Source of the DNA: a virus
Length of the DNA: 50,582 bases
Direction: 5' to 3' (one strand)
IMG/VR virus record: IMGVR_UViG_3300023235_000014
Shown: positions 11,710 through 49,177 of the stretch, one piece after another
How the letters are laid out: each line of letters opens with the position of its first letter
Position numbering within the stretch: position 1 is the stretch's first letter
Notes under the pieces: model-generated
The model's input: the letters and a program-made list of their open reading frames with translations, nothing else
The model's database searches: none
What the model was told of the DNA's origin: nothing
Program-made: the position numbers and the translations under genes

Positions 11710-14700
11710 TTAGGCGAGAACTTTCGATTCGATGCCGTCGTTTTTGACTTCGATCATTCGTTCAGCAACCTCCTTGACTGGAGTGACATGCGAAATCACA
11801 AGAATCGTCTTGAAGTACCCACGAAGGAAGGTAAGCATATCCATACAGCTCTGGATGTTATTTTCATCCAACGCACCGAAGCCCTCATCGATAATGAGCA
11901 CATCGGGTTTTGGAAGCGACGATAGGTTGATTAACGCAGCCCTTAGGGCCATGCTTGCAATTGTCTTTTCCATGCCAGAAGCCAACTCGATAATACGCTG
12001 GCTGTGTTCATCCTGAATATAGACGTCCATGACATTGGAGTTAATATCAGTCTCCAGACCAATCTTGAAGTCGGTGATACCCTCAAGAATCTTTGACAGT
12101 TCTTCGTTGATGGCAGGAAGCTGGGACTTGAGGACCATAGCGGGGATTCCCGTCTTTGAGAATGCGGATAGGATGGAGTCATAAATCTTCAATTTGCCTA
12201 TCAACGATTTTGTTTCTTCCTCTTCCATAATAAGGTTTTTCAACCCCTCTTTCTTGCCGCCTAGTTTTACCAGGGTTTCCTGGCGCCTTGTTTCAATATC
12301 CGCAACTAGTTGACGACATTTATCAAGCTGAATTTTCTTCTTCTCATACTCTTTGCCCTCTAACACGTTGACCTTCTTCTTCAATGAAGAAATTTCGTCC
12401 TTGATTTTCTTGACTTCAAGTTTTGTTGATGTGAACTCCTTTTTCAGGAGTTCACGGTGCTTTTTGCTTGATTCAATAGTGCGAATAAGATCAAATTCCT
12501 GACGGTCCAAGGTTTGGTGTGTGGTAATCTGCTCACGAAGTTTTTTAGCAACGTACTCTTCAAAAGTCTTTTCATTTATCTCATATTGGGACGTGAGTTT
12601 CTTTACCAGCTCTTCTTGAGTTTTAACCTTCTTTTTGTCTCGGTGACCGTCTTTGATATAATGGCAGTCTGGAAACTGGTCACCACAAGGCACGACTTCC
12701 AGTTTTTTGATGTTCTTTTTCTGGTTGTTTAGTACGGCCTTGTGCGAGTTCAGCTCTGCTCTAAGTTCATGCAAAAGCGACTTTAAGGATTCAAATTCTT
12801 CAAGCTGTTCCTTGAGCGACACAACGTCGATTTTCTTCTTGTCAGCCTTTACGTCTTTCAGCTTAGTTTCATTAGATTTGAGTCCTGATTTTAGTCTTAC
12901 AAGACTGTCTGACTTTGCCTTGACAGTCTTTTCACCAGCAATCACCTTTCGCTCCAGCTCTTCCATGTGAGCGAGGTCGACATCCGCAGCATTTTTTTCG
13001 TGATGCATCAGCCAAAGCTTGACTGAATCCTTTTGCTCACGGAGTTTTCGTAGTCGCTCCTCAAGTGAGCCAACTTCATTTTCTCCCTGGGCAATTATCT
13101 TCCTCGTTTTCACGATTTGATTGCTTACGGTCTGTGGTGAAAGAGAGTTTCCACGAGTGTTAAGTCCGCTGTAATCATCCTTGCAGAGGTAATAGAGGTT
13201 GTCAAATATATCAAGTTCTAGGAAGCGAGCCAGAATTTTCTTTCGCTCTGTTGGGCCTTCCTTGATAAAGCGATCTACCGAGCCCTGAGAGGACAGGGCA
13301 GTCAGTAGAAAGTCATTGGATGTTCCGACAAGCTTTCTGATTTCTTTGTCCGTGTCGTCACGAGTGACGGAGTTCATAACCACTTTTTTCTCGTGACCTG
13401 TTACTTCATCCCGTTCAATGCGATAGAAATTCAAAGTGGTGGTGGTCTTGTTCGGGTCTCGCTTTGAAGTCTTCTTTTTAGGGACGACCCTAGTGCTCTT
13501 TCGTTCAACGATATAATCCGTGCCACCCACATTGATACGGACCTTACCACGACACCAATTTTTACGTCGGTTAATGATGTGAGCATTTTTCATCGGACCA
13601 CGATCGGTGGTGTTGTACAAAACATACATCAAGGCTCCGACAATGCTGCTTTTCCCTATCTTGTTTGGACCGAAAATACCTACTATGCCCTCTAGGTCTG
13701 AGAAATCAATTTTATTGCCTTCGCCGTAACGGAAAATGTTGTCAAACTCCAGATATTTGATCGACCAGTTGGTTGTCCTGGCAATTTTGTCTGAGTCTCG
13801 AATCATGAGCTTTGACATGTAACCACGAATAAGCTGGTCTGCTTCTTCGATAGCATCACGGTCAAAGTTGTAGCTAGCGATATGAGCTGTTAGATAATCT
13901 AAGTAAAGCCGAACAACTGCGTCTGGATCCTGCCTTAGGCTTTTTTTGGAAATCTTAAGGTTGTCATTTGTAGACACATGGTCCATTCTTGACAACATAT
14001 TGTATTTAAAGACTACCTCAGAAGCTTTCTTCTCTTCCCTGAGCGAATGGACCAATTTTCGGGCTTCGACACTAGGAATTGCTGAAGAGGAGGACACACG
14101 GAAACGGCTGCCCTTGAGGAAAGCTCGTGTGCCCCTTGAATCCTTGACTTTTTGCAGTGTGTTTTCAACTGAGCCTTCCCAGCCAATGGTTATAAAGGGC
14201 ATGCGGTTCTCAAGCTCATGGAACTTGATGGACCAGTCATCCTTGTCCTTTATGTCCCAAATCAAGTAACCCTTCTTTTCGGATTCTCCGAAGTTTTGTT
14301 GAATCAGGGAGCCAGGGTAAGCCATCCAAGGCTTAAGTTTTCCATTTTTGTCTTTACGCTGTGCTAGAGTCTGGTGCTTGTGAATGTCACCAAGCAAAGT
14401 AAAATCAAACTGTGCAAAGTCAGTAGTCACTGCTTCGGCGATGCCTTCTGGCATCTTCCAGTTGTTGTCCATTAAAGAACCTGCAACCGAACCGTGGTAT
14501 AATGCTATATTGATCGCCCCTTCGATAGGTTTGACTTTGGGCCAGCCCTTTTGATCAAAAGGGGAATATACACACAGATGGACGTCTTTTCCTTTAACTT
14601 TCTCGCTGAGTTTGAAAGTTCCTGATTCACGTAGTAGGTGAGCACGAGGGTGCGCAATGGATTCGTGAATTGGTGTGATTGTATCCTTGCGATATAAATT

Positions 14701-14958
14701 CGTCAGATTGCCATCGTGATTCCCTAAGATGGTGTAAGACGGTGCGATGTCCGCAAGCGAGCGAAACATCCAAGCAAGCCGTTCAATGATTTCTGGTGTT
14801 ATACCCTGGGTTTTGGTATGGAACGTATCCCCTGTATTCACAATTAGGTCTGGCTTGTGGTGTCGAAGCTCTTCAAAAAGACGTTCAAAAGCTTGAACGT
14901 ACTCTTTATGACGAGAAATGCCACGCCAATGTATGTCGGAGATGTGAGCAATTTTCAT
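11710..14958 (-). CDS. Mre11-Rad50 fusion (SbcD nuclease fused to SbcC ATPase; T4 gp47+gp46 equivalents in one 1082-aa polypeptide)
   Basis: N-terminal calcineurin-like phosphoesterase motifs HISDIHW, GDTFH, GNHD, HGS and GDIHKHQ (Mre11 motifs I to V). Walker A GIFGPNKIGKSS. Long coiled-coil. Signature LASGMEK, Walker B VLIIDEGF and D-loop ALD at the C-terminus. Start taken at the ATG at 14958 (MKIAHISDIHWRG), with AAGGA 9 nt upstream; the longer track start at 15030 is rejected. Confidence 0.85.
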   Translation of the reverse strand: MKIAHISDIHWRGISRHKEYVQAFERLFEELRHHKPDLIVNTGDTFHTKTQGITPEIIERLAWMFRSLADIAPSYTILGNHDGNLTNLYRKDTITPIHESIAHPRAHLLRESGTFKLSEKVKGKDVHLCVYSPFDQKGWPKVKPIEGAINIALYHGSVAGSLMDNNWKMPEGIAEAVTTDFAQFDFTLLGDIHKHQTLAQRKDKNGKLKPWMAYPGSLIQQNFGESEKKGYLIWDIKDKDDWSIKFHELENRMPFITIGWEGSVENTLQKVKDSRGTRAFLKGSRFRVSSSSAIPSVEARKLVHSLREEKKASEVVFKYNMLSRMDHVSTNDNLKISKKSLRQDPDAVVRLYLDYLTAHIASYNFDRDAIEEADQLIRGYMSKLMIRDSDKIARTTNWSIKYLEFDNIFRYGEGNKIDFSDLEGIVGIFGPNKIGKSSIVGALMYVLYNTTDRGPMKNAHIINRRKNWCRGKVRINVGGTDYIVERKSTRVVPKKKTSKRDPNKTTTTLNFYRIERDEVTGHEKKVVMNSVTRDDTDKEIRKLVGTSNDFLLTALSSQGSVDRFIKEGPTERKKILARFLELDIFDNLYYLCKDDYSGLNTRGNSLSPQTVSNQIVKTRKIIAQGENEVGSLEERLRKLREQKDSVKLWLMHHEKNAADVDLAHMEELERKVIAGEKTVKAKSDSLVRLKSGLKSNETKLKDVKADKKKIDVVSLKEQLEEFESLKSLLHELRAELNSHKAVLNNQKKNIKKLEVVPCGDQFPDCHYIKDGHRDKKKVKTQEELVKKLTSQYEINEKTFEEYVAKKLREQITTHQTLDRQEFDLIRTIESSKKHRELLKKEFTSTKLEVKKIKDEISSLKKKVNVLEGKEYEKKKIQLDKCRQLVADIETRRQETLVKLGGKKEGLKNLIMEEEETKSLIGKLKIYDSILSAFSKTGIPAMVLKSQLPAINEELSKILEGITDFKIGLETDINSNVMDVYIQDEHSQRIIELASGMEKTIASMALRAALINLSSLPKPDVLIIDEGFGALDENNIQSCMDMLTFLRGYFKTILVISHVTPVKEVAERMIEVKNDGIESKVLA

Positions 14959-14961
14959 ATT
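14920..14961. repeat. Copy A of a 45-nt duplicated block (true mre11 5' end)
   Basis: gccacgccaatgtatgtcggagatgtgagcaattttcatatt, compared with copy B at 15606..15647, gccacgccaatgaataccagatatgtgagcaattttcatatt. The flanks are identical (20 and 13 nt). The central 12 nt have 5 substitutions. Confidence 0.8.
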
Positions 14962-15644
14962 GAGTCCTTTTTCAGAAGGGCTTTGGTCCGAGCCCCCCAA
15001 GTTTTTGTTTTTTTGTGGCATGAAATACAAAGTGTTCTTCCGTTACCAATATCCCACAGTTCGACACATTTCACAGCTTCCTCCAGGGTCTCGATGGCAT
15101 TTCTCTGTATCAACAGAGCCAGAGGAACAATATGGTCTGCATTCAGATTTCCACCTTTTGTTTTGCAAAATTGACAGGTGTAATCATCTTTTTCAAAAAC
15201 TGCTTGCCGCCAATTCTTGGATTCAATTCTATCTCGCAAGGCTTTGTTTAAGGTTTTCTTGTGTTGGTCTACTGGTTTCCAGTTGGGACTCTTCCTCCCA
15301 GCCAACCTTCCTTTGTTTGCCTTGCTTATTTTGTTCTTGGTGTGGTCAGAATGAGTTTTTCCAAAAAATCCATTGTTCTTACCACAAGTCGCCCGAGACA
15401 TCTTTTCCAAAGATTGCCTTGTGTGCTTACGACCAAAAAAAGCATTTTTGTTGCCCTGGGCAGCTTCTGTTCTAGTTCTTCTCGGGATGCCAAATTTAAT
15501 CAACTTGGCTCGCACAGTCGCATACGTAACGCCAAACAACTCTGCAACTTGCCTTAAAGATAACTCTTGTGTGCAATACAGTTTGGTAAGTGTTTCTTTG
15601 TTAGTGCCACGCCAATGAATACCAGATATGTGAGCAATTTTCAT
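14955..15644 (-). CDS. HNH homing endonuclease (N-terminal HTH, NUMOD3-like repeats, C-terminal HNH); its first 13 codons duplicate the mre11 start
   Basis: MKIAHISGIHWRG, then LRQVAELFGVTYATVRAKLIKFGIP (HTH), then GKTHSDHTKNKISKANKG (NUMOD3-like), then CQFC...NADHIVP...NGRTLCISCH (HNH). The stop TGA overlaps the mre11 ATG. Confidence 0.85.
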   Translation of the reverse strand: MKIAHISGIHWRGTNKETLTKLYCTQELSLRQVAELFGVTYATVRAKLIKFGIPRRTRTEAAQGNKNAFFGRKHTRQSLEKMSRATCGKNNGFFGKTHSDHTKNKISKANKGRLAGRKSPNWKPVDQHKKTLNKALRDRIESKNWRQAVFEKDDYTCQFCKTKGGNLNADHIVPLALLIQRNAIETLEEAVKCVELWDIGNGRTLCISCHKKTKTWGARTKALLKKDSI

Positions 15645-15647
15645 ATT
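15606..15647. repeat. Copy B of the duplicated block (5' end of the HNH endonuclease ORF)
   Basis: See copy A. Confidence 0.8.
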
Positions 15648-15721
15648 ATTTTACGATCTATGAGTAACTACTTTCTTCCCATGCACACAATGTATGAAAT
15701 GAGTAAATTCAAAACTCTTTG

Positions 15722-16750
15722 TTAATTTAACAGAGACGTGATTCTCATTCTGAGTTCGTAGTTCTCTGTAAGAGGTTTAGCAGAGTTGAGTAGTTTCATA
15801 AACTCGTTTCGAGTCATGTCGCCGATATCCTTGTCCCAGGAGGGGTATTCGAGAATCCGAACTGATATATCAAACTCTGCCAGGCGTTTTGCAAGCCTAA
15901 ATTGTTTTTTCTGAGCCTTGGGTTCAGGGTCAAATGCCAATACAACTGGTGTCTTATTGATAACGATTTTCTGTAAAAGCGCAAATTCTAAAGTCAATTC
16001 CTCAGAGCCAAGAACCGCTGTAGCATTCTGGTTCGCCTTCAGCAAATCAAAGGGGCCTTCGACTATAGTCAAGGGCTCTTCCCAATCAATGTTCAATTCA
16101 TTGAAGATTATCTTACGTCGGTCGCTTGGCGGGTTCTTGTAATTGAACATTGGCTTCCTTGTCCAGGAACGAGCCGTCCAATAAGATAGTTCTCCGCTTG
16201 AATCATAAGACGGAATGATAATGCGATACTTGCACCTAGCTTCACGGTCTTCTGTGATGCCAAGCTTCCAATACCACAACTCAGTCCTTGTATTTATATT
16301 CCTCGATTTTAAATATTCGAGTGCCTGTTGCACATAACGTCGTGTGACAGGAGAATGTATGGAGTCGAAGTCCCTGACAAGCTCTGCCAATAACTTAAAA
16401 CCCGCTGGGAGTTCGACAACAGTTTCTTCTGGCCCTTCATCCGAATCCTGGGCCTCAAGCTCCTCAGCGTTTACAAAAGATTCCTTGTACTCTTTGAGAT
16501 TTGCAGGATGGTATTTGGCGATAAGCTTGTAGATGTTGCGAGCCTTATACCCACAAACCCAACAGTGAACAAAATGCGGATGAACCGTCTTAATGACCAG
16601 CTTCTGCTTAGTGTAAGATGAACCTTTAAATTGCCTGCACATAGGACAAACGACGGAAAAGTTTTTCCCGCCGTTTGAAGGTTTTCCATCGCCAAAAACC
16701 TTTTCTATGAAGTCAATTGCTTGACCTTGTGTGAAATAATTTTGACTCAT
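15722..16750 (-). CDS. DNA primase (T4 gp61 / DnaG-like: zinc ribbon plus TOPRIM)
   Basis: CPMC...HCWVC zinc-binding domain, TOPRIM IVEGPFDLL (EGxxD), and acidic DxD-type residues downstream. Confidence 0.8.
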   Translation of the reverse strand: MSQNYFTQGQAIDFIEKVFGDGKPSNGGKNFSVVCPMCRQFKGSSYTKQKLVIKTVHPHFVHCWVCGYKARNIYKLIAKYHPANLKEYKESFVNAEELEAQDSDEGPEETVVELPAGFKLLAELVRDFDSIHSPVTRRYVQQALEYLKSRNINTRTELWYWKLGITEDREARCKYRIIIPSYDSSGELSYWTARSWTRKPMFNYKNPPSDRRKIIFNELNIDWEEPLTIVEGPFDLLKANQNATAVLGSEELTLEFALLQKIVINKTPVVLAFDPEPKAQKKQFRLAKRLAEFDISVRILEYPSWDKDIGDMTRNEFMKLLNSAKPLTENYELRMRITSLLN

Positions 16751-25807: not shown

Positions 25808-26521
25808 ATGGGATTTCTACAGAACGATACAAACAACATCATTTTAGACGCTGTTTTAACAGACAAGGGCCGTGAGTTCTTGGCCAGAAACGATGGCAGT
25901 TTTTCTATCGTCAAATTCTCCCCTGGAGATGACGAGATAGATTATACGATCATTCAGAAATTCGGCCGAACAGTCGGCAAAGAGAAGCTGGAAAAGAACA
26001 CACCAATTTTTGAAGCATTGACCAACCAAGGCCTCGCCCAAAAATATAGAATGATCAGTGTGTCCAATCCGAGCTTGATCCGCCTGCCAACCCTGTCCCT
26101 GACAGGTGAAGGTGTTACTGCAACTACCAACGTCGTCTCTATTGGCAGCACTACCGTCAAACGACGAAACCTCACCGTTGCTCAAGACATTCAGGATGAA
26201 AACTCCATTGACGTAGAGCTGAGAGACCAGGCTTTCATTGTGGAAATGAACAATCAGTTCCTACAGGTGCTCGGCTCCACTCCAGAAGATATCGATGGTC
26301 AGCAGAGAGCAACTTACTTGTTAACTCGTGATGCTGTTGAAACCGCTGTTGGCGGTTCACGGCTCTCTTTCACTCTTGCAACCAAGGCGATAACAGAATC
26401 GCAGTTCCAAATTTACGGAGCAACATTCAACAAGAGCTTGATCAGCACCTTTGTTAAAATCTCAGGTGTGCAGTCAGGCGCTGTATACGAATTTGAGACA
26501 CAAATCTCAAAGAACACATGA
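25808..26521 (+). CDS. Hypothetical protein (237 aa) beginning MGFLQN
   Basis: ORF. The N-terminal MGFLQN matches the repeat core of the 37552..38682 protein. Confidence 0.5.
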   Translation: MGFLQNDTNNIILDAVLTDKGREFLARNDGSFSIVKFSPGDDEIDYTIIQKFGRTVGKEKLEKNTPIFEALTNQGLAQKYRMISVSNPSLIRLPTLSLTGEGVTATTNVVSIGSTTVKRRNLTVAQDIQDENSIDVELRDQAFIVEMNNQFLQVLGSTPEDIDGQQRATYLLTRDAVETAVGGSRLSFTLATKAITESQFQIYGATFNKSLISTFVKISGVQSGAVYEFETQISKNT

Positions 26522-26529
26522 TCTAATAC

Positions 26530-26783
26530 TTTTTATGCAAAACACATCCATAGAAGAGTTCACTAAGAAATTTTGCGGTGCTACACATGTGCAACTAAAT
26601 GTTAATCATATTAAGCCCTTTGCTTTAATCGTACATCGCAATAAGTTGAAATCAACACACGAAGCGCAAAGCTGTGAGGCGCTTTGGGATATTAAAAATG
26701 GTAGAACATTGTGTGAACAATGTCACAGGGCAACTACAACGTATGGTCTGCCTTTAATTAACCAACAGCAAATAAGCAAGTAG
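26530..26783 (+). pseudogene. 3' remnant of an HNH homing endonuclease gene (HNH domain only)
   Basis: Encodes ...KFCGATHVQLNVNHIKPFALIVHRNKLKSTHEAQSCEALWDIKNGRTLCEQCHRATT. This is homologous to the C-terminus of the intact HNH at 31016..31795 (CCLNADHIKPFALI...LWDIKNGRTLCVECHKTT) at both protein and nucleotide level. The HTH and NUMOD parts are missing. Confidence 0.7.
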
Positions 26784-26793
26784 AAGGTATATT

Positions 26794-27969
26794 TTGGCTA
26801 CATTCAAAGAATTCGCAGCAGAAGATGTGAAAACAAGCAGAAGCTTTTTGAACCAATTAGTGGACGTGATCAACACAGATATTTCTGCATCGAGCACACG
26901 AAGAAAATTTCAAGTTTTTGTGACTGGCGGTGTGGGACCTGGTGTAACGTCATCATTGTTCCAGACTGTATACGATCAAGACTTCACTCTCCAGACAGCA
27001 AACCCTGTTTTCGATATAACGATTGGACTTGCTAGCGGCTCAGAGGTTGTTCAGAATGCTAACCCGACGATTGATGCTAACGGCAAATATCTGTTTGGCT
27101 CTGACACTCTCATGATGCGTGAAAAGATGGATCTCTACCGCCAATTTGCCCAAAACCTTCTTGGGGATTCCGCCGCTGTTTTCACAGCTCGCTCAGGCTC
27201 TACCTCCTTCCAAATTAAGGAAGCTGGGTTCCTTTGCTTTAAGCGATTGTTCTCCCGTGATCAGATGAAGCGTGAGACTTTTGCCTTGCGCTACTTCCCA
27301 ACTGCTAGTCTGGATGGTTTCAAAAATGCCGATACCCCGACTATCAGTACCCCACCAGAGAGCGCTACAAAAATCCTTACAGATATCAACTCGTCTGTAA
27401 ATAAGGAGTTCACTTTTGGCGGTCAGGTCTCTACGGTTGTCGATTCATCAAATACAGCTGTCCCTCTTGGGCTTTTGTTCATTGATAAAGGCATCTTTGT
27501 CATGGACCTTTCTAGGTCTATGGATCAGACAGTGGAAATCTCAGGAGCAATTGATGGCGTAACAGCTACAGGCACTGCCTTCCTTTCTGGTACATTCGAT
27601 AAGCTGCTGCTTTCGGCATCGATTGATGATGTTGTTGATCATTTGGCAGCCACCAGATTCCTCTCGGGAACCGTTGACCAGACAGCAATCACATTTCAGA
27701 ACATCACAAACATCAATTCATCACTTTTCTTTGCTCGACTTGCTGCCGATGAATTCAACTACTCAAGTAACCCTTCTTACGTAGATTCCGAAAATCGTAT
27801 CGTTGTCATCGACGAAGGCCAAGAGGAAACCCAAAGAAGCTTTACATTTGTTTCAAGCATCGGCATGTATGATGCTTTTGATAACTTATTGGCCGTCGCT
27901 AAGCTGAGTCGTCCCGTTCTAAAGGACGACGAAAGGGATATCACCTTCAAAGTAAGGCTGGACTACTAA
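26794..27969 (+). CDS. Structural-like protein (391 aa, TTG start); its C-terminus is paralogous to that of 28617..30965
   Basis: SD AGAAGG 8 nt upstream of the TTG. The C-terminus YDAFDNLLAVAKLSRPVLKDDERDITFKVRLDY aligns with HDDNLNIIARTNLAQPVLKRSGDKFLFKIKLDF. Confidence 0.55.
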   Translation: MATFKEFAAEDVKTSRSFLNQLVDVINTDISASSTRRKFQVFVTGGVGPGVTSSLFQTVYDQDFTLQTANPVFDITIGLASGSEVVQNANPTIDANGKYLFGSDTLMMREKMDLYRQFAQNLLGDSAAVFTARSGSTSFQIKEAGFLCFKRLFSRDQMKRETFALRYFPTASLDGFKNADTPTISTPPESATKILTDINSSVNKEFTFGGQVSTVVDSSNTAVPLGLLFIDKGIFVMDLSRSMDQTVEISGAIDGVTATGTAFLSGTFDKLLLSASIDDVVDHLAATRFLSGTVDQTAITFQNITNINSSLFFARLAADEFNYSSNPSYVDSENRIVVIDEGQEETQRSFTFVSSIGMYDAFDNLLAVAKLSRPVLKDDERDITFKVRLDY

Positions 27970-28247: not shown

Positions 28248-28568
28248 ATGGTATCCATCAGAAGACGTTACGGGCAGCCAAAGCTGAAAAAGGTCAAGTG
28301 TGAGATGTGTGGCCTTGATGAACCAAGTGCTCTTGAGGAACACCACGTTATCCCCCGACACGACCCAAGAAGCCACAACAATAATGGAAACCTCGCTGTA
28401 ATTTGTGGTTCGTGCCACAACCTGGTTCATACGGGGGAAGCTATCATTCTCGGTGTTTACAAAAGCACTGGCGGAAGAATCGTCATGTGGCATCGCAAGG
28501 GCGAAGAGGCTCCCCTAGCAGAGGAGTTTTGGCTGGTTAAGAACAATAGTGGTGTAAAGACCAGGTGA
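28248..28568 (+). CDS. Small HNH endonuclease (106 aa)
   Basis: CEMCG...EEHHVIPRH...NGNLAVICGSCHNLVH, the classic C-x2-C / HH / N / C-x2-C-H HNH motif. Confidence 0.8.
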   Translation: MVSIRRRYGQPKLKKVKCEMCGLDEPSALEEHHVIPRHDPRSHNNNGNLAVICGSCHNLVHTGEAIILGVYKSTGGRIVMWHRKGEEAPLAEEFWLVKNNSGVKTR

Positions 28569-31015: not shown

Positions 31016-31795
31016 ATGGTTGTTACTGACGAAACTTTGCCTGCAACATTGTTTGAACTTTACATAGCTCAAAAATTGTCTATCCAAAAGATTGCCAAGA
31101 AACTTGACAGCAGCTATGGCACAATTTATCGACGTTTAAAAAAGTTCGGCATTCCCGTAAGAAAAAAAACGGACTATCCTAATCCATTTTTAGGAAAGAC
31201 GCATACATCTGCGGCTCGGCAAAAAATTAGTAAGGCCAACAAAGGTCAGCGTTGGGGTCCGCTTTCCGAAGAGACAAAAAAGAAAATTAGCGAGGCACAC
31301 AAGGGCAAAGTAGTCTCAGCTGAAACAAAACAGAAAATATCCAAAAATCACGCAAACGTATCTGGTCAAAATAATCCGATGTGGGGTGAGAAACACTCTT
31401 TGGAAACACGAAAGAAAATCTCCAAAGCAATTAAAGGAAAATTGCGAACTGGCAGTGAACACCATTGGTATAAAAAACCAAACGAAAGAGTGACTAGCCT
31501 TTTAATGCTAGTTCGAACTTGTACCCAGTACAAAAGCTGGCGTACATCCGTTTACAAGCGTGACAAGTACACGTGTGTTTGGTGTGGAAAAAACACTGGC
31601 AATGACAATAAATGTTGTCTGAACGCTGATCACATCAAGCCATTTGCATTGATCATAAAAGAAAATAAAATTACAACTCTTGAGCAAGCAATTAAATGTA
31701 AGCTGTTGTGGGATATCAAAAATGGCAGAACACTGTGTGTCGAATGCCACAAGACAACGAGTTCATTCGCAAAACGAATTTCTCACTATAGCTAA
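31016..31795 (+). CDS. HNH homing endonuclease (HTH, four NUMOD3-like repeats, HNH), paralog of 14955..15644
   Basis: LYIAQKLSIQKIAKKLDSSYGTIYRRLKKFGIP (HTH). GKTHTSAARQKISKANKG, LSEETKKKISEAHKGK, SAETKQKISKNH and HSLETRKKISKAIKGK (NUMOD3-like). CVWCG...NADHIKPFALI...NGRTLCVECH (HNH). Confidence 0.85.
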   Translation: MVVTDETLPATLFELYIAQKLSIQKIAKKLDSSYGTIYRRLKKFGIPVRKKTDYPNPFLGKTHTSAARQKISKANKGQRWGPLSEETKKKISEAHKGKVVSAETKQKISKNHANVSGQNNPMWGEKHSLETRKKISKAIKGKLRTGSEHHWYKKPNERVTSLLMLVRTCTQYKSWRTSVYKRDKYTCVWCGKNTGNDNKCCLNADHIKPFALIIKENKITTLEQAIKCKLLWDIKNGRTLCVECHKTTSSFAKRISHYS

Positions 31796-48530: not shown

Positions 48531-49177
48531 GTGCTACAGGACGAGGAAAAAAGAAGAGAGACCCAAATGATTTCTACCCCACACCAGGATGGACAGTCAG
48601 GCGCTTTTTAGAAAAAGCAGGAGGCCGTTTGAAGTCTGGTACATGGATTGAGCCATGCGCAGGTGACGGGGCTATTATACGAGCTGCTAGGCCCCTTGTG
48701 CCACATGTTCGCTGGCACGCTGTTGAACTCCAAGGTAGGTTTGAAAAAAAGCTTCAACAGACCCCAGGGGTTGCAAGGGTTGACATCTCTAGTTTTTTAG
48801 ATTGGCAGTACGAGCCCCAAAAGACAAACCCGAGTGCTAGGGCTGCGGTCATCTTGACCAATCCTCCCTACAAGATGGCGCAAGATATGATTATTCATGC
48901 GATGACTCAGGCCGAGCAAGTTTGCATGCTATTGCGCCTGAACTTTCTTGCCTCAGACGTACGATGTACTTGGATGCAAAATAACACTCCAGATATTTAC
49001 GTCATTCCAAATAGGCCATCCTTCAGAGGTAAAGGGTCTGATGCCTGTGAATACGGATGGTTCATCTGGGATGACAAGTCTATTGGGAAAGTAACAATTC
49101 TTAATTCCACCCCGAGGAAAATAAGGTCAGATGAAAAAAAAGCAGTGCAAAAAATGCTTGGCAACGAAGAAACTTGA
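48527..49177 (+). CDS. DNA N6-adenine methyltransferase, gamma-class (NPPY)
   Basis: Motif X DFYPTP, motif I EPCAGDGAI (FxGxG-like), and motif IV ILTNPPYK. Confidence 0.75.
   Translation: MSATGRGKKKRDPNDFYPTPGWTVRRFLEKAGGRLKSGTWIEPCAGDGAIIRAARPLVPHVRWHAVELQGRFEKKLQQTPGVARVDISSFLDWQYEPQKTNPSARAAVILTNPPYKMAQDMIIHAMTQAEQVCMLLRLNFLASDVRCTWMQNNTPDIYVIPNRPSFRGKGSDACEYGWFIWDDKSIGKVTILNSTPRKIRSDEKKAVQKMLGNEET

Follow-up and report, generated by a model that had tools for sequence, protein, structure and literature searches.

Homing endonucleases are thought to persist in essential genes by way of introns, inteins, gene splitting or intergenic placement. In fungal mitochondria, mORFs combine an endonuclease open reading frame (ORF) with a foreign copy of the C-terminus of a gene, as in atp6 of Allomyces macrogynus and in the Glomus atp6, atp9, cox2 and nad3 hybrids (PMC3630166). 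Among the free-standing endonuclease genes of T4-like phages, start/stop overlaps, such as UAAUGA at mobE, suggest translational coupling (PMC2988022). The locus described here lies in IMG/VR virus record IMGVR_UViG_3300023235_000014, a stretch of 50,582 nt (hereafter the window, meaning this whole length) from an uncultivated jumbo-type phage. A mobile HNH endonuclease gene probably resides there inside the 5′ end of mre11-rad50, after codon 13–14, together with a 39–43-nt duplication of the mre11 start, and the endonuclease probably begins at the captured ATG.

All parts of the locus are read from the minus strand. In coding direction, the Toprim/primase gene is followed by a 77-nt spacer (15645–15721), copy A of the duplicated block (15605–15647), a 229-codon HNH gene in frame with copy A (14955–15644), copy B (14919–14961) and the 1082-codon mre11-rad50 fusion gene (11710–14958; Pfam Metallophos together with SMC_N/SbcC Walker B/AAA_23). 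The two diverged copies of the block that the original prediction placed on either side of the HNH gene are recovered by a repeat finder as a direct repeat with 38/43 identical positions (88%), runs of 17 identical nt and a spacing of 686 nt. The duplication itself thus stands, but its length is 43 nt and not the predicted 45 nt. A degenerate 39-nt pattern of the block has exactly two matches in the window, versus 0 in 100 shuffles; a search of IMG/VR for the exact pattern gave no match.

Copy A consists of AAT, the ATG, codons 2–13 and a final A. It gives the endonuclease its ATG and first 13 codons, and the protein begins MKIAHISGIHWRG. Copy B is the true start of Mre11, as had been proposed: the ORF from 14958 (−) begins MKIAHISDIHWRG, and the Mre11 homologues all start with the same motif, M(K/R)I.HI(S/A)D.HWR. 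Homologues of the whole Mre11-Rad50 protein number 4456 at E ≤ 1e-20, mostly of 1066–1100 aa. The endonuclease stop (TGA, 14957–14955) and the mre11 start (ATG, 14958–14956) overlap in an ATGA at 14955–14958, exactly as first noticed, and the overlap is also present in a second genome, contig L009. Upstream of its true ATG, the mre11 frame continues without a stop for 24 codons and so reaches back into the 3′ part of the HNH gene (window 11710–15030, −); ORF listings therefore contain a spurious 1106-aa version that starts at TTG.

The five substitutions between copies A and B fall in codons 6–9 (ATA/ATC, TCT/TCC, GGT/GAC and ATT/ATA), and four of them are synonymous, in agreement with the original count. 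Only the G/A difference at the middle position of codon 8 alters the protein: copy A encodes Gly in place of Asp8, a residue of nuclease motif I that is invariant in the 12-sequence alignment A1 and in every Mre11 N-terminus inspected. Copy A is unusable as an Mre11 N-terminus because this catalytic residue is replaced there. This bears on an explanation in which a group I intron or an intein is removed from mre11 and copy A is the true first exon. Phage endonuclease genes often reside in such elements, and related Mre11-Rad50 genes do carry probable LAGLIDADG inteins in the Rad50 P-loop. Apart from the lost catalytic Asp8, the ORF is closed by a TGA, copy B brings an ATG of its own, a downstream exon would hold a redundant ATG and 13 codons, a comparison of 14500–16000 with Rfam gives nothing at E ≤ 1, and local RNA folds are no more stable than those of shuffles. 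An intron or intein is therefore very improbable, and the earlier view that the element is neither, with its own stop and a restart downstream, holds.

That the HNH gene is an insertion is best seen in relatives that lack it. In the closest relative with a long contig (L007/L008, Mre11-Rad50 83% identical), gene order is syntenic (813-aa gene, 140-aa gene, primase, mre11-rad50), the spacer is 78 nt long and the block occurs once. The site is likewise empty, with a single block copy, in L010, L011, L042, L099/L100 and L101, whose Mre11-Rad50 proteins are 70–82% identical to that of the window. Empty-site relatives simply show primase, a spacer of 22–78 nt and mre11, and about 75 further loci have an empty site. 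The adjacency of primase and mre11 is conserved in 80 metagenomic and 6 IMG/VR loci, where −4 to +90 nt usually separate the two genes; in these loci a second copy of the mre11 start was found only in L009. Related loci with one copy number about 90 besides the closest relatives and L009. The single block copy foreseen for insertion-free relatives is thus what the closest ones carry. Duplicated blocks with nothing between them, which the original prediction had named as contrary to it, were seen in none of about 100 loci.

The arrangement recurs in independent data. Assemblies from Logan, JGI and ENA contain 19 contigs that encode the identical endonuclease protein, and 8 fetched loci from different samples show 0 mismatches to the window over 961 nt. 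A diverged version is found on the 1.8-kb contig L009 and again on L108, which is of the L009 type, comes from a different sequencing run and shows 6 mismatches over 1489 nt. Short repeats may mislead assemblers, but the 19 contigs, the identity of the 8 fetched ones and the recurrence of the L009 version in L108 leave a negligible chance that the locus is an assembly or chimera artefact. The order in L009 is primase, an 80-nt spacer, an ATG with MKIAHISDIHWRS in frame with the HNH gene, the ATGA overlap, and mre11 beginning MKIAHISDIHWRG. Its HNH protein is 72% identical to that of the window. Its repeat is again 43 nt long, with 79% identity and the same spacing of 686 nt.

Comparison of the window with L009 shows saturation of synonymous sites in primase, HNH gene and mre11 (proportion of synonymous differences, pS, 0.74–0.82), while the corresponding non-synonymous value, pN, is 0.073 for mre11. 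For the HNH gene, pN is 0.165 and pS is 0.74, so that the gene is under purifying selection. Because synonymous sites are saturated and non-synonymous divergence is low, the arrangement is not a recent accident. Copy A itself shows about 6 synonymous and 2 non-synonymous differences between the two genomes. So few non-synonymous changes fit either a translated and constrained copy A, or its re-creation from the recipient's mre11 start at each homing event.

Capture of the mre11 start by the endonuclease is well supported by comparison with the protein family and by structure modelling. An exhaustive HMMER search over 1.84 billion representatives yields 21,164 relatives of the endonuclease. In the best 150 of these, alignments begin at query residue 13 or later, with one exception at residue 8, deep inside the target; family alignments begin at query residues 14–17. 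In a 22-member family alignment, homologues begin 1–8 residues before the helix-turn-helix (HTH) domain, and residues 1–13 of the proteins from the window and from L009 have no aligned counterpart. The N-terminal extension is common only to the cluster that holds these two proteins. In the AlphaFold2 model of the endonuclease, residues 1–10, ahead of the HTH domain, have no secondary structure. Downstream of the captured ATG, no further ATG occurs in frame until Met82, beyond the HTH domain. The native spacer, which now lies 5′ of the endonuclease gene, can be aligned with the spacers of L007 (78 nt) and L009 (80 nt), with common blocks including TTCATTTC and CGTAGTTA. On the strength of the family, model and start-codon evidence and of the spacer homology to the empty site, the native mre11 initiation region now heads the endonuclease gene. 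The use of the duplicated start by the endonuclease, proposed at the outset, is thus borne out by the lack of a family counterpart of residues 1–13, by the absence of an ATG before Met82 and by the frame kept in L009.

Alternatively, the gene could be an ordinary free-standing intergenic endonuclease with an internal start, the duplication being an incidental scar of illegitimate recombination and nothing being captured. Free-standing phage endonuclease genes often have no initiation region of their own and overlap their neighbours (PMC2988022), the plain intergenic state exists at the same junction in contig L098, and a gene caller picked an internal ATG in L009. An internal start at Met82 would lose the HTH domain, and the in-frame TTG and GTG codons (L36, V43 and L47) would also truncate it. 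Moreover, the open frame, the fusion of 13–14 codons and the 686-nt spacing are kept in two synonymously saturated genomes, the differences in copy A are mostly synonymous, and a second gene call for the L009-type HNH gene begins at the captured ATG. This alternative is thus quite unlikely, and capture of the mre11 start remains the preferred reading.

How Mre11-Rad50 is then translated can be approached from sequence motifs. The last endonuclease codons contain a Shine-Dalgarno (SD)-like AAGGA (14965–14969), a motif match only, 6 nt before the mre11 ATG; AAAAGG stands at the same place in L009 and L098. SD-like motifs precede 13/39 phage genes versus a background of 11%; given so modest a use of SD signals, the AAGGA ahead of copy B is only suggestive. 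Translational coupling via the ATGA overlap is the other likely route to mre11 translation. The 77-nt spacer contains neither an SD-like motif nor a sigma-70-like site. No promoter or terminator was found between the copies, the RNA folds at both starts and at the native start are not more stable than those of shuffles, and no spacer motif recurs elsewhere in the window.

The endonuclease has the features expected of an HNH homing endonuclease, namely a catalytic motif, a modular region of NUMOD3 and HTH parts and sporadic presence at one conserved site. The 229-aa protein matches PHROG 8446 (HNH endonuclease, E = 6e-20), Pfam NUMOD3 in three stretches (E = 1.4e-14) and Pfam HNH with 21.8 bits, against a cut-off of 21.4 bits. 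Its structure was modelled from alignment A3 with a mean predicted local distance difference test score of 89. The HTH DNA-binding domain (residues 16–51; 15492–15599), defined by the model and by family alignments, consists of helices 16–25, 30–37 and 41–51. The NUMOD3 repeats follow, with the best Pfam stretch at residues 71–107 (15324–15434), and then the beta-beta-alpha-metal nuclease domain (residues 132–213; 15006–15251), in which C157, C160, D170, H171, N201, C206, C209 and H210 are invariant. Foldseek against PDB gives domain-level matches only, none at E ≤ 0.001: the NUMOD3 region matches the DNA-binding domain of I-TevI (1i3j; 43% identity over 37 columns), and the nearest solved structure to the HNH domain is the GVE2 phage HNH endonuclease (5h0m). 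The relatives of the endonuclease in IMG/VR (L102–L107) are distant (≤51% identical) and partial.

In the proposed mechanism, the native initiation region of mre11 would drive translation of the endonuclease from the captured ATG (15644), giving the predicted N-terminal peptide MKIAHISGIHWR, and Mre11-Rad50 would be made by re-initiation or coupling at copy B. During co-infection, the endonuclease would cut endonuclease-free mre11 alleles in or near the conserved block coding for motif I. Recombinational repair would then copy the element into the recipient, with the two block copies serving as adjacent homology. The fused state may have arisen from a break in a recipient mre11 near codon 13–14, the downstream side of which would have been mended by homology; the upstream side would have been joined illegitimately, and in frame, to the 5′ end of a free-standing HNH gene from a donor, of the kind found in L098.

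A self-contained start-replacement cassette is also conceivable, though only tentatively. The endonuclease body, the SD-like site and a substitute ATG with 13 mre11 codons would home together into the middle of the element's own recognition sequence within an essential ORF and seize the initiation region of the host gene, each copy of the block being protected by the lack of one native flank. If the recognition site spanned the block and both native flanks, each copy would indeed be left without one of them. Should the cassette exist, it would parallel introns and inteins without any splicing, and phages might use such a strategy generally. Copy A at the endonuclease start may, in addition, act as an autoregulatory operator, by analogy with the homing-site-like operator of I-TevI (PMC2988022).

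The clustered divergence between the copies was originally read as a sign of selection on both proteins and of self-immunity; as worded, this part of the prediction is not supported, and self-immunity is at most a conjecture. Clustering of the substitutions in the window is nominal (p ~ 0.02) and post hoc. The 9 differences between the copies in L009 are spread over codons 3–13 without clustering. Synonymous variants specific to endonuclease-carrying copy B, sought as an immunity signature, were not found: TCC, ATA and CAT also occur in empty-site alleles.

Several points weigh against a mobile gene that homes into the mre11 start. The arrangement is present in only two lineages, and, because synonymous sites are saturated, one ancient insertion looks the same as repeated homing. 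Copy B and the sequence downstream of it re-create a complete native-like 5′ end of mre11, so that immunity of the filled allele is accounted for only if the recognition site reaches into the spacer. A co-conversion tract common to the two filled genomes has weak backing from sequence comparison. In the first 90 nt of mre11, identity between the window and L009 is 84% versus 71–77% for other pairs, and informative sites favour the pairing of these two genomes by 16 to 6 and 8; the breakpoint test, however, reaches p = 0.017–0.03 at best (Fisher, uncorrected, with scanned breakpoints), and the signal is absent with L010 as comparator. The very short block itself gives a mixed picture: copy A of L009 agrees with the empty allele of L007 at 34/39 positions but with its own copy B at 30/39, and copy A of the window matches its own copy B at 34/39 and L007 at 33/39. 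Finally, purifying selection on the HNH gene fits continued homing and domestication equally well.

Domestication would mean that the nuclease is no longer mobile and is kept for the benefit of the phage, for example for cutting the mre11 of competitors in co-infection or for working with Mre11-Rad50, and is co-expressed with mre11 from one initiation region. This is consistent with the very low pN/pS at saturating divergence, with the same geometry in two old lineages and with population variants that have only 1–3 substitutions, all in a linker. Against it stand the sporadic distribution (2 lineages among roughly 100 related loci, the closest relatives being empty), an architecture typical of homing endonucleases and the unrelated endonuclease genes that fill the same junction elsewhere. 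On balance, a purely domesticated nuclease is unlikely. Phage competition and selfish homing are not mutually exclusive and can coexist.

The primase gene (15722–16750, −, 342 aa; PHROG 47 DNA primase, E = 2e-38, Toprim domains) is the conserved upstream neighbour of mre11-rad50, and the junction between the two is a recurrent site of insertion. In L098 (1437–4014), the primase–mre11 junction holds a gene for an HNH protein of the same family (277 aa, two HTH domains, 36% identical). This gene starts at an ATG of its own, which overlaps the primase stop, and no duplication accompanies it. This state is a plausible precursor of the fused one. The mre11 of L098 is, moreover, split after GDIHKQQFL by a gene for a 347-aa Vsr/DUF7487-like endonuclease, and its downstream part restarts with MKKYKVKIRKPN; P0144 and P0151 have the same split. 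In L019 (2047–2998) and L054 (579–1384), the junction holds a gene for a 270–297-aa protein with repeated KNHWSKKS motifs, a PD-(D/E)xK-like C-terminus and a match to PHROG 15427 (endonuclease). Gaps of 868–870 nt with a stop-free stretch of 297–307 aa are seen in L001–L003; a 277-aa junction translation from L001 has no family match. Flank duplications were found neither at the other junction insertions (L001–L003, L005, L019, L054 and L098) nor at the other HNH genes of the window. Homing endonucleases directed at a conserved DNA-repair gene would be expected to leave such a pattern of occupancy.

Further inside the fusion gene, five Mre11-Rad50 homologues of 1409–1435 aa (P0123, P0125, P0132, P0171 and P0221) contain an insert of ∼340 aa in the Rad50 Walker A region, between GPNKIGK and SSIVGA. 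LAGLIDADG_3 matches are found in the inserts of P0123, P0125 and P0221, and none in those of P0132 and P0171. The P-loop insert is probably an intein.

Other candidate mobile nucleases, among them at least two further HNH genes and one HNH remnant, are scattered in the window, all on the plus strand. A full-length, 259-aa HTH-NUMOD3-HNH paralogue (31016–31795), 36% identical to the HNH protein studied here, has its own ATG and sits between genes of 782 and 257 aa without a flanking repeat. A 110-aa ORF (26451–26783), the C-terminal part of which is 46% identical to residues 153–217 of the HNH protein, appears to be a decayed HNH remnant between the genes at 25808–26521 and 26794–27969. A 106-aa ORF (28248–28568) with a CxxC...HH...CxxCH pattern overlaps an antisense ORF of 175 aa and possibly encodes an HNH nuclease. 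The 326-aa protein at 49131–50111 matches endonuclease and endonuclease VII PHROGs (E = 3e-48 and 3e-36) as well as an HNH PHROG, and is possibly a mobile nuclease. Besides primase and Mre11-Rad50, the window encodes an RNA ligase and a DNA ligase, and contigs with these genes reach up to 254–285 kb. One homologue is filed at NCBI under a Paceibacterota metagenome-assembled genome that is probably mis-binned. The window has no nucleotide match among GenBank phages.

The locus can be compared with several known systems. Like the free-standing HNH and GIY-YIG genes of the mob/seg type in T4-like phages, the endonuclease gene adjoins a conserved DNA-metabolism gene, is without an initiation region of its own, shows a start/stop overlap and occurs sporadically; the T4 genes, however, are intergenic or overlap an upstream ORF, and the review describes no duplication and no in-frame fusion to the first codons of the target (PMC2988022). 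Neither terminal duplication nor start capture figures in the T4 accounts (PMC2988022, PMC3045599). In the full-text literature, with incomplete coverage, no phage example of a duplicated 5′ end with an endonuclease was found. With Aeh1 nrdA/mobE and T4 gene 60/39 mobA, the locus has in common an endonuclease gene within an essential coding region, without intron or intein; there, the host protein consists of two reassembling polypeptides, whereas in the phage locus the downstream gene encodes the complete protein, of which the 13-codon upstream piece forms no part (PMC2988022; PMC3045599). A true split of the Aeh1 nrdA/mobE kind is found in the mre11 of the relative L098. Fractured genes, in which split inteins are combined with a free-standing endonuclease gene between the halves, resemble the locus in non-intron residence within a gene and in their origin from environmental metagenomic data (PMC2677866). 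They reportedly rely on protein trans-splicing, whereas the phage locus has no intein motifs and uses stop and restart instead (PMC2677866).

The closest known analogue is the mORF. In both cases, an endonuclease ORF moves together with a copied terminus of the host gene, that terminus is duplicated, the ORF can be in phase and the host gene works without splicing (PMC3630166). The mORF, however, duplicates the 3′ end, substitutes the inserted copy for the native C-terminus and leaves the native remnant unused downstream, whereas the phage locus duplicates the 5′ end and turns the remnant into the endonuclease start (PMC3630166). The enzymes also differ, with LAGLIDADG or GIY-YIG in a mitochondrion versus HNH in a large dsDNA phage, where the block is only 39–43 nt long (PMC3630166). 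By analogy of design, the phage locus can be described as a mirror image of the mORF.

As read here, the locus would add a further solution to those by which homing endonucleases persist in essential genes: a dozen codons are duplicated, the initiation region of the host gene is taken and a replacement start is given to that gene. The fused arrangement would allow residence in a conserved essential gene without inactivating it, as an intron or intein would, and without splicing. It would account for a class of unusual N-terminal extensions, and of wrongly called starts, among endonuclease genes from metagenomes, and it marks the block coding for Mre11 motif I as a likely target. It is, moreover, a compact example from nature of how a payload can be placed within an essential gene while leaving that gene intact. 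The mirror symmetry with mORFs suggests that duplication of a gene end evolved convergently as a general route for selfish nucleases.

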